Source: Macrostomum lignano | Taxonomy: Eukaryota | Assembly (NCBI GenBank): GCA_002269645.1 | Contig: NIVC01004280.1 | Coordinates: 1 to 51,869, forward strand | Direction: 5' to 3' | DNA length: 51,869 nt | In this document: positions 2,238-10,796 of the stretch, one piece after another | How the letters are laid out: each line of letters opens with the position of its first letter | Position numbering within the stretch: position 1 is the stretch's first letter | Made by a program: the position numbers and the translations under genes | The notes under the pieces: generated by a model | Databases searched by the model: none | What the model saw: the letters and a program-made list of their open reading frames with translations, nothing else | Told to the model about the DNA's origin: nothing

Positions 2238-5200
2238 TCACACATCCCGTGAGCGCAGATGATATCGCACAGCTGGAATAGGTTCTAGTCCGTGCTGATC
2301 ACGAGTGTCAGGCTCATCCACGACGTCAGTCTGAGTAGCGTGATGCTGTGCCAGTGGCGGGTGGTGGTCGAAGTGAGTCTGTGGTATCGATGATGTGAAG
2401 TTCGGCAGATTGAGTTCCTCTTGTGGTTGAAAAGGGGAACGTTTTAGCTTGGAGGCATGGACTACGAATGGTGGCTCTGTCAGCTTATTAATATCCTGGA
2501 TTAGCGCATTCTGTGGGCTCAGCCATTTTAGAATTCGCATCGGTCCTCGGAACGGATTAGAGAACTTTGTCGGCTTAGTAGCAGATATGTCTAAGTAACA
2601 GCGGGAGCCTATGGTGAGCTTTTGAGCATTAGGGGCTTTTTCTTCGTTCTGTTTCTGGGCCCGTTGATCGGCTGTAGAGTGTAGGTGATGGAGAGCAATT
2701 TCTCTGGCCAATGTGATCGCTGAGCAGGTCAAGCTGATTGGTTGGATTTCCTCGGTGTAGATCGATATTTGATTTTCGAGGATTCTTGTGCTGGGTGCCA
2801 GGAAGTCACGGGCGTAGAACAGGTAGAATGGCGATTCCTTCATGGCAGTGTGGGCTGCGGTGTTCAACGCAAGAGTCACTGCTGGCAAATATTCGATCCA
2901 GTGATCGGGCTTGTCGTGCACAAAGGTAGTTAGTGTCTGTTTGAGGTTTCGGTGGGCACGTTCTACGAAATTGCTGGATGGTTGATAGACTGATGTGTAG
3001 ATCAGTCGGATTCCCATTGTGTCCATGTACTCGCGGAACTCCTTGGAAATGAACTGTGGTCCATTATCAGAAATCAGACAGGCCGGAAGTCCGGCTATCG
3101 CGAAGACATGTCGAAACAAATGGTTGCAAATAGTAGACGTGGTTGTATCAGCCAGTGGTATCGTGAACAGAAACTTGCTAACACCACACTGAGCTGTCAA
3201 GATGTACTTGTACACATCTCGCATGTAATGAGCCGGTGGTAACGGTCCTACAAGATCAATAGCCAGGTGTGAGAAGACACTGCGGAATTTCATTGCTTTC
3301 TGTTCTGAACGCAGTCGAGGTCCTGATTTGGCTTTTTGACAAATCTCGCATTTGTTAACGAAGCTTGTCACGTCTGCGTGGCAATTGGGCCAATAGTAGA
3401 ATTTGCTGAGTCGGGACAAGGTTTTCTGAAGACCAAGGTGTCCTCCAAATGGAGAGGAATGGCATTCCTGAAGGAGAGCGTCTCTGTAGGCGGTTGGGAT
3501 CACCAGACGTGGTGTCGACGAGTTAGGACTACGAGAGTCACCTTCCAATGGATCGTAGTAGAGTGTGTCGTTGGTGTAGTAGAAGTGGTGTAGATGTTTC
3601 GTCAGATGTTTTTGTTCTGTTTTCGATAAGTTCTTGTACATGGATGTTAGTACGTCGTCTTTTTGGTTCTGTAGAGTGGCTATCACTGTCGCACAGAATG
3701 GGTCTTGGTTTACTGCTTCGTGCAAGTTGTCAAAGGCTGGGATGGGATGTAAAGTATTCACACTAGGAATACGGGACAGGCAGTCGGCTACAGCGTTTGA
3801 GCGGCCTTTAATATAGTGGATCGAAAATTGGTAATCCTGTAGATGTAGAATCCACTTTTGCAGTCGTTTCGAGAGAGGCTGTTTGTCAGTGAACAGAGAT
3901 TGCAACGGTTGGTGATCCGTGAACACTGTAAATGGTAGGTGTGAGGCGTATAGGAAAACATGGAGCTTCCGAATCGCCCAATAGATAGCATAGGCTTCTC
4001 TCTCAATGGCAGGATAACGTTGTTCCGTCGGAGTCAAAGTTTTAGAGATGTAAGCGACGGGTTGCAGATGTCCACGCGAATCGTGTTGAGAGAGGACTGC
4101 ACCAAGAGAGTAGTCAGAGGCATCCGTATGAAGCACGTAGGGCTTTCGAGGATCAGGATGTACTAGTATAATATCAGTTGACAGAATCTTTCGGATGTTG
4201 TCAAAGGCCGTCTGTGTGATAGTAGTCCATTTCAAACTTTTTGTAGCCAGAGCGTCTTTGAGAGCACGAAGCAATGGTGTCACAATCGTAGAGTATCCTT
4301 GTACATGCGAGCGATAAAAGTTGGCAAGTCCGAGGAAGGACTGCAGTTGCTTAGGTGTCTTAGGTTCCGGGAAGTTCTTAATTTTTTCGACAAGCGCTGG
4401 TGCCGGTCGGATTCCATGTTCGGACACTTGAAAGCCTAGATACTGTACTTCGTTCTTTGCAAAGGTGCATTTTCTAAGCGAGATACGAAGACCGTGATGG
4501 CGGAGTTTCGCCAAGAAATGTCTGAGTTCACCCAGCATGCCATTAAAGTCCTTTGCGATTAGGAGTACATCGTCCAGGTAGGCGATAAGATTAGGTGAAT
4601 CTGCTGTGAGTAGAGCGACTAGACGACACATCAGGCTGGGAGATGCGGCCAGACCCTGTGGCAAGCGATTAAACTGAAAAAGGAGGCCATTAGGTGCGAT
4701 GAAGGCGGTATATTTGGCGCTGTCTGGGTCTAGTCGGACTTGGTAAAACGCGTCGGCAAGGTCGCACAACGAATAAAGTTTGGCGTCGCGTAGGCGGTGT
4801 AGGAGGTCCGGTATACGTGGCGGGCGTATGCTTGGTGTTGTTAGAATTCGGTTGAGACGGCGAAAGTCAACGACAAGACGCAATTGGCGGCGTCCTTGTT
4901 CATCAAGTGTCTTCTTTTCGACCAGTAGACATGGGCTTGAGTATTCCGACTCGCTAGGGCTGAGTATTCCTTTGTGGATGAAATTCTCGATCAGTTGGTC
5001 AAAACGCTCTTGAAGACCATGTGCAATCGGAAAAGGTCGCGATGTAATTGGATGCGTATGTGGTTGAACGTTAATTGTGGCGGTATATTGAGTAGTGCAT
5101 CCCATATCCGTAGGTAACAGAGCCAGCGTATCTCGGTACTCTAAAAGTAGGTCGCACAGTCTCGTAGCTTGTTCGGGTGTCAGATGCGAATTGTTAGGCC

Positions 5201-10796: not shown

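Follow-up and report, generated by a model that had tools for sequence, protein, structure and literature searches.

The window analysed here, a stretch of 51,869 nucleotides from the flatworm Macrostomum lignano (contig NIVC01004280.1), carries on its reverse strand an LTR retroelement with one long ORF. Read from 10796 to 2238, this ORF yields 2852 aa with zero stops. Its C-terminal part encodes protease (PR), reverse transcriptase (RT), RNase H (RH), and integrase (IN) in the order known from Ty3/gypsy elements (Metaviridae; Pfam, aa 1626-2606), and the interval between the Gag knuckles and PR contains a hydrophobic signal (core at aa 659-677), 14 ectodomain cysteines, seven sequons, and a transmembrane segment (TM; aa 1483-1501). 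The original prediction of an env-like region placed between the Gag knuckles and the DSG protease within one ORF is confirmed by the frame, the Pfam matches, and the motifs. The features of the element, in its own 5' to 3' direction, are the following.

12745..13321 (-), 5' LTR, 577 bp, termini TG...GA; from self-alignment, ends set by 4-bp target duplications
12731..12743 (-), PBS-like site starting with TGG, 1 nt beyond the LTR
10797..12730 (-), leader of about 1.9 kb with 16 upstream ATGs
2238..10796 (-), Gag-Env-Pol ORF, 2852 aa, open in 4/8 full-length copies
8823..10796 (-), Gag and Pro/Ser-rich linker (aa 1-658); from motifs; sister families are 25-50% identical to it in their N-terminal part
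9611-9570 and 9413-9372 (-), Gag knuckles; from motifs
8760..8822 (-), internal signal sequence (aa 659-679) with basic n-region and predicted signal-peptidase site near aa 679
6351..8759 (-), gB-type (class III) ectodomain (aa 680-1482); from profile, AF2, and Foldseek
7722..7733 (-), first furin-like site RQSR (aa 1022-1025), a minimal R-x-x-R
7224..7721 (-), mucin-like insert, 166 aa; from composition, predicted disordered, putatively O-glycosylated
7212..7223 (-), second furin-like site RIRR (aa 1192-1195); RIRR or RNKR in 6/6 insert-bearing rows
6282..6350 (-), transmembrane anchor and predicted stop-transfer (aa 1483-1505), hydropathy 2.33
5946..6281 (-), predicted cytosolic Env tail joined to PR, with late-domain-like PSAP (6107-6096) and LYPTL (6032-6018)
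5673..5921 (-), aspartic protease with DSG (aa 1626-1708); PF13650, PF13975
4425..4892 (-), reverse transcriptase with YLDD (aa 1969-2124); PF00078
3831..4229 (-), RNase H (aa 2190-2322); PF17917, PF17919
2979..3500 (-), integrase zinc finger and core (aa 2433-2606); PF17921, PF00665
530..2237 (-), 3' region of about 1.7 kb without long ORF; purine-rich tract at 542-530
1..529 (-), 3' LTR, cut by the contig end (the contig starts at base 1); from self-alignment

The first Gag knuckle (aa 396-409) is of the CCHC type and the second (aa 462-475) reads C-x2-H-x4-H-x4-C; a Pfam search of the Gag region returned no significant capsid match of its own. Long additional ORFs were sought in the leader and the 3' region and not found. 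Two contigs from public sequencing runs cover the frame, one (X2 record 16) spanning 1246-12769 with a single gap that falls outside the ORF, the other (X4 record 20) spanning 2166-10002 gap-free. Thus, the frame is not an artefact of this assembly alone, with the reservation that the runs may share a strain. Close to the N-terminus of Gag, an in-frame repeat of 21 nt (10621-10684) varies in copy number, with one additional unit on C247. The ORF begins with MKLRSG, and every complete integrase C-terminus ends with Y-x-L-R-(S/P)-(R/K) (2244-2267 (-) in the window, and the sister loci L044, L047, L050, L053, L056, L063, L069, and L074); both resemble the motifs by which foamy-virus Gag and KSHV LANA bind nucleosomes.

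Beyond this element, the window contains a second gypsy-type element with Gag-PR-RT-RH-IN, lacking env and with the integrase split across two frames (19277-23070 (-)), two ORFs (336 and 385 aa) that lack a Pfam match and, on visual inspection, may encode DNA-transposon proteins (23519-25632 (-)), and a 91-nt inverted repeat (15839-15929 and 17315-17405, 1385 nt apart). Host genes are represented by exons of a D-glucuronyl C5-epimerase (35165-37754 (+)) and a weak bZIP match (32080-32889 (+)); from 37763 onward, a unit of 28 bp is repeated in tandem about 78 times or more.

Copies and insertion sites

A DNA search of the source genome returned 16 matches, nine of them near 100%. Of eight other copies that were read in their entirety, seven are full length and 99.3-99.8% identical to the window, and one, on C1356, has a 5.7-kb internal deletion. 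A spliced retrocopy was considered as the origin of this deleted copy and rejected, since the junction lacks GT-AG and contains filler bases. The two LTRs of the window are 99.6% identical over their 529 common bases, those of the other copies are 99.3-100% identical, and a separate 4-bp target duplication was found in 8/8 cases. As C270 has the same flank as the window, the nine near-identical copies represent eight insertion sites. The recent activity first deduced from the near-identical LTRs is therefore supported in the form of recent multiplication. The frame is open in four of the eight full-length copies, the window included. The other four each have two or three deletions of a single base, either genuine or introduced by assembly. 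Three further loci (C16, C317, and C3783) share one common flank and hold a rearranged LTR-plus-gag fragment, with no env in the stretches read.

The LTRs end in TG...GA in all eight copies and not in TG...CA, the termini that are usual, though not universal, in Ty3/gypsy elements. Among the related families, those of C1189 and C1674 (L045-L046 and L061-L062) have TATA-like LTR ends, and those of C583, C106, and C2112 end in TG...CA. A search for the cognate tRNA of the PBS with a 17-nt pattern matched 12 places, namely nine element copies and three decayed-relative sites, and one tRNA-end pattern gave zero matches. A heat-shock element was sought in the LTR and is absent. Several insertions lie within tandem repeats: a 15-nt array in the window (13321-13500), a 36-nt array on C247, and short repeats on C158 and C3126.

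The gB-type envelope and its relatives

For the middle part of the polyprotein, Pfam gave only a sub-threshold gB match (E 0.075), word-based homologue searches returned the self match or one protein only, a PDB search from a single env sequence had zero matches, and single-sequence fold prediction was unusable (pLDDT 35). A search of 1.84 billion representatives with env yielded 50 non-self matches; 16 of the 26 that were scanned matched Monjiviricetes_fusion or Glycoprotein_B (E <= 0.01), three of them above the curated cut-off. A profile of 17 source-genome env sequences matched gB of EBV with E 6.9e-15. The AF2 model of the ectodomain, based on a 58-row alignment, reached pLDDT 69.8 and is low only at the N-terminus, in the insert, and in parts of the C-terminal arm. 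In Foldseek comparisons, the best solved-structure matches were herpes gB (E 1.8e-13, TM 0.30/0.40) and the top viral model match was a nyavirus glycoprotein (E 2e-19). VIA-align placed 411 residues on herpes gB (Z 12.5), which appeared in all 50 matches listed; the high rmsd of 10.5 makes the domain arrangement of the monomer model unreliable, the family assignment being reliable nonetheless. The model contains a long central helix (model residues 541-587), and 12 of the 14 ectodomain cysteines are conserved in 30 or more homologues and at least 85% of non-gap rows. The envelope thus resembles herpesvirus gB and the glycoproteins of Monjiviricetes (nyami-, chu-, and borna-like viruses) in fold and cysteine pattern; it differs from them in being only 8-17% identical and in being encoded inside a retroelement polyprotein. 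Profile, Foldseek, and VIA-align uphold the proposed class III identity at the level of models, and the element is almost certainly a gypsy element bearing a gB-type env. Candidates for the fusion loops are the tips of two hairpins, at about aa 758-767 and 813-828, which have lower pLDDT and few aromatic residues.

The env C-half produced 144 scored matches in the source genome, from which 19 sister loci were picked for long open frames. Eight of these hold Gag-Env-PR-RT in a single stop-free frame (2458-2538 aa); the remainder show parts in the same order, with breaks. Among the 50 database homologues, which include gene models and two proteins that look like products of these same families, 12 have a CCHC motif upstream, 15 a protease motif downstream, and eight have both. 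Sister loci, full-length copies, and database homologues together identify env as a family trait and speak against a private insertion. The closest outside relatives are P0063 and P0064 (58-60% identity over RT-RH), each a single chain with the order env-TM-PR-RT-IN. The label of P0063 gives a bacterial MAG as its source, but this is probably animal DNA in a metagenome bin.

The original prediction also regarded the order of the genes as a distinct genome plan. This does not stand, as errantiviruses with a gB-type ENV in the order GAG-ENV-POL have been published before from Nematoda, Bryozoa, and Platyhelminthes, an element of M. lignano among them (Chary and Hayashi, eLife 2026, PMC13524379), and the same paper credits Sacco 2022 (J Gen Virol, doi 10.1099/jgv.0.001739) with the flipped order of ENV and POL in nematodes. 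Its table contains one M. lignano row (Mlig_errantivirus_2), and the C2112/C1639 family matches this row in its 864-867-bp LTR and the same 12-nt PBS; the family is itself encoded in one frame of 2538 aa. The window's POL groups with this family (SH-aLRT 98; quick RT tree of source-genome families and database relatives, without the published sequences and subject to a long-branch warning). The window's family and the errantiviruses of PMC13524379 are alike in gene order, a gB-type env flanked by signal and TM, the presence of LTRs, multiple copies of >98% identity, and host phylum and species. Compared with the C2112/C1639 family, it differs in its 577-bp LTR, a different PBS, identities of about 29% in env and 41% in RT, and the mucin-like insert. 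The main text of PMC13524379 does not mention fused products, polyproteins, splicing, late domains, ESCRT, or budding, and its preprint text does not mention mucin. A survey of 137 LTR families in M. lignano with RNA-seq of LTR elements (PMC12801592) may include the window's family.

Meloidogyne proteins likewise carry CCHC, env, PR, and RT in one chain, and their env is homologous to that of the window. Nematode endogenous retroviruses reportedly encode gag, env, pro, and pol in one continuous ORF, with a nyamivirus-like glycoprotein, and the layout of the window's element is the same. The hosts are nematodes there and a flatworm here, and the Meloidogyne RT P0057 (30% identity) falls outside the 18-row clade of the families studied here in the quick RT tree. 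The Meloidogyne proteins also lack both the insert and the tail motifs described below.

As for the predicted furin site, a cleavage motif is indeed present. It is not single; two furin-like sites bracket a 166-aa insert rich in Thr, Ser, and Pro (53 Thr, 15 Ser, 23 Pro, and no Cys), which is predicted to be disordered and, judging by this composition, may be O-glycosylated. Both Arg of the first site are invariant in 17/17 alignment rows, and relatives mostly have RxKR or RxRR; every insert-bearing row has a basic site at both ends of the insert. Furin-like sites and signals were assigned from hydropathy and rules rather than by a trained predictor. The spacing between the two conserved cysteines around this position is 64-201 aa in 40 of the 46 rows that have both (12 of the 58 rows lack one of the two). 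In the window and five loci of two sister families it is 291-364 aa with 34-45% Ser+Thr, and these form one RT clade (SH-aLRT 99; quick tree, long-branch warning). In the outside relative P0064, the insert position is occupied by a short stretch rich in Thr. The insert lies directly before the long central helix, at the position of the disordered furin loop in herpes gB. Compared with that loop, the segment is enlarged, rich in Thr, and flanked by two basic sites.

Selection, topology, and the Env tail

Env is under purifying selection in the sister families, with dN/dS of about 0.09 as judged from three unsaturated pairwise comparisons: 0.085 for C2112/C106, 0.084 for C583/C717, and 0.09-0.11 for C3269/C1695, with 0.29 for the insert. 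Between the window and its sisters dS is saturated, and dN/dS for the window itself is not computable. These values bear on the possibility that Env is a passenger of an element that now transposes intracellularly, its frame being kept intact only for the sake of the downstream Pol. As a stop or frameshift in env would remove Pol too, an intact frame is in itself no proof of a function of Env, and the predicted fusion-loop region of the window's family, which has fewer aromatic residues than that of the C2112 family, would suit such a role. However, upkeep of the frame would not yield dN/dS near 0.09, kept cysteines, and a TM that is 91% identical between families with saturated dS, compared with about 22% identity in the Gag-Env linker. 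A mere passenger is thus very improbable.

Despite the divergence of this linker, the pattern of the signal that follows it is kept. An n/h/c pattern with a basic n-side and a -3/-1 site is found in 14/14 polyproteins examined, and the flank of the TM is more basic after than before the segment in 12 of the 14. Signal and TM charge pattern together predict a cytosolic Gag, a luminal Env, and a cytosolic Pol. Flavivirus and alphavirus structural polyproteins offer an analogy, without any claim of homology, as capsid, internal signal, glycoprotein, and stop-transfer segment also follow each other in one chain. Internal signals can also serve as uncleaved anchors. If the signal were uncleaved or often skipped, the chain would stay whole until cut by its own protease, Gag and Pol would be co-packaged at a fixed ratio, and excess Pol would be degraded. 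The h-region of the window's signal, the weakest of the 14 (2.28), is in line with this reading. Nevertheless, the -3/-1 small-residue site follows the h-region in every one of the 14 polyproteins and some 20 residues later comes the first of the conserved gB cysteines, as in an ordinary mature N-terminus, which makes an uncleaved chain improbable.

Retroviral late domains are short motifs such as PTAP in HIV p6, YPDL in EIAV p9, and PPPY in MLV p12. Of 36 distinct tails, the segments of about 100 aa between TM and PR, 23 contain a P(T/S)AP, YPxL-like, or PPxY motif, compared with 2.3 expected from shuffles; these counts are not independent and are inflated by the relatedness of the tails, and the YPxL pattern was relaxed after inspection of the data. 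Restricting the count to textbook P(T/S)AP or PPxY with one copy per family leaves 6/9 against 0.7 expected. Motif density per 1000 aa is 15.6 in the tail, 2.5 in the linker, and 0.2 elsewhere. The motifs are present in 17/18 source-genome tails versus 6/18 tails of database relatives; none occur in P0063, the closest outside relative, or in the three proteins from Meloidogyne, and late-domain-like motifs before PR are absent from 11 env-less polyproteins used as controls (0/11). We assume that PSAP, LYPxL, and PPxY in the tail are ESCRT late domains. As in retroviruses, they are short Pro-rich motifs just upstream of PR, and homology is not claimed; in contrast to retroviruses, where late domains are on Gag, they would sit on the tail of Env. 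An additional PSAP occurs in the window's Gag linker (aa 566), and Gag may consequently bud by itself.

In summary, the gene order is known. What appears to be new is this family, a Thr-rich insert between two furin-like sites that is limited to the window's clade, a conserved topology that would free Gag while Pol stays on the Env tail, and the putative late domains on that tail. For insert, topology, and tail motifs no published description was found, with the restriction that the figures and sequence repository of PMC13524379 might mention the family or the insert.

A possible route of particle assembly

A fixed 1:1:1 ratio of Gag, Env, and Pol had been proposed for the translation product. 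This applies to the reading frame, but probably not to particles. The computed volume of 540 Pol molecules is about 9e4 nm3, and the Ty3 capsid of 540 subunits has an interior of about 5e4 nm3 (PMC6525542), making a Gag:Pol ratio of 1:1 in particles unlikely. Moreover, with Env in mid-chain a Gag-Pol fusion cannot survive signal cleavage, and Pol then needs another way into the particle.

Splicing or early polyadenylation could provide one by yielding separate Gag or Gag-Pol messages, in which case the genomic frame would serve mainly Env and Pol would be packaged in the ordinary manner. Drosophila copia and similar single-frame gag-pol elements do produce a spliced Gag RNA, and in the window a donor-like site is present at aa 644 and an acceptor-like one at aa 1555, together with an ATTAAA just past the second knuckle and a further donor-like site (11521) in the leader with its 16 upstream ATGs. 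Yet nine polyproteins, compared over linker and tail, do not have a splice donor, poly(A) hexamer, or slippery site in common, the two sites of the window differ in phase by the script's count, and the junction of Env, tail, and PR is in frame in every family examined. No env-skipping joint occurs in the contigs of four public runs, whose kind was guessed, and contigs cannot exclude one. Separate messages are therefore an unlikely explanation, if a less remote one than an uncleaved chain.

The topology described above offers a different solution, which we consider probable: the polyprotein would be threaded through the ER, with signal peptidase freeing Gag and Pol remaining on the cytosolic tail of the gB-type Env. 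Gag would be made in the cytosol; translocation would start at the internal signal, which would then be cut near aa 679. Env would become luminal and glycosylated, and furin-type cleavage at both sites would release or loosen the mucin-like insert. The TM would then halt transfer, and PR-RT-RH-IN would be made on the cytosolic side, tethered to Env. Env-Pol would cluster at the membrane, where the tail motifs would recruit ESCRT factors. Partial packaging of Env-Pol with Gag would replace frameshifting and keep Pol sub-stoichiometric, and the cleaved signal might be the anchor through which Gag meets Env-Pol. Finally, PR would excise itself from the tail, and enveloped particles would enter adjacent cells by fusion, perhaps those of the germ line. 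Points against parts of this scheme include the first furin-like site, which is only R-x-x-R, the signal of the window, which is the weakest of the 14, the PSAP in the Gag linker, and the tails of database relatives, of which only 6/18 have a motif. More speculative is the view that these steps form a novel route as a whole, with signal peptidase cutting off Gag, an Env tail that carries ESCRT signals and Pol driving budding and packaging, a clade that sheds a mucin-like glycopeptide, and particles that pass between cells. We regard this complete scenario as possible but doubtful.

Particle assembly of such elements is not addressed in the literature examined, and topology and tail motifs would provide a concrete and testable answer. 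M. lignano is a transgenic laboratory flatworm with RNA-seq work at hand (PMC12801592) and many recent copies of several families; expression and particles can thus be sought in the animal. If the proposed route is true, it would represent a mode of retroviral assembly not described before, in a genetically tractable, regenerating worm.
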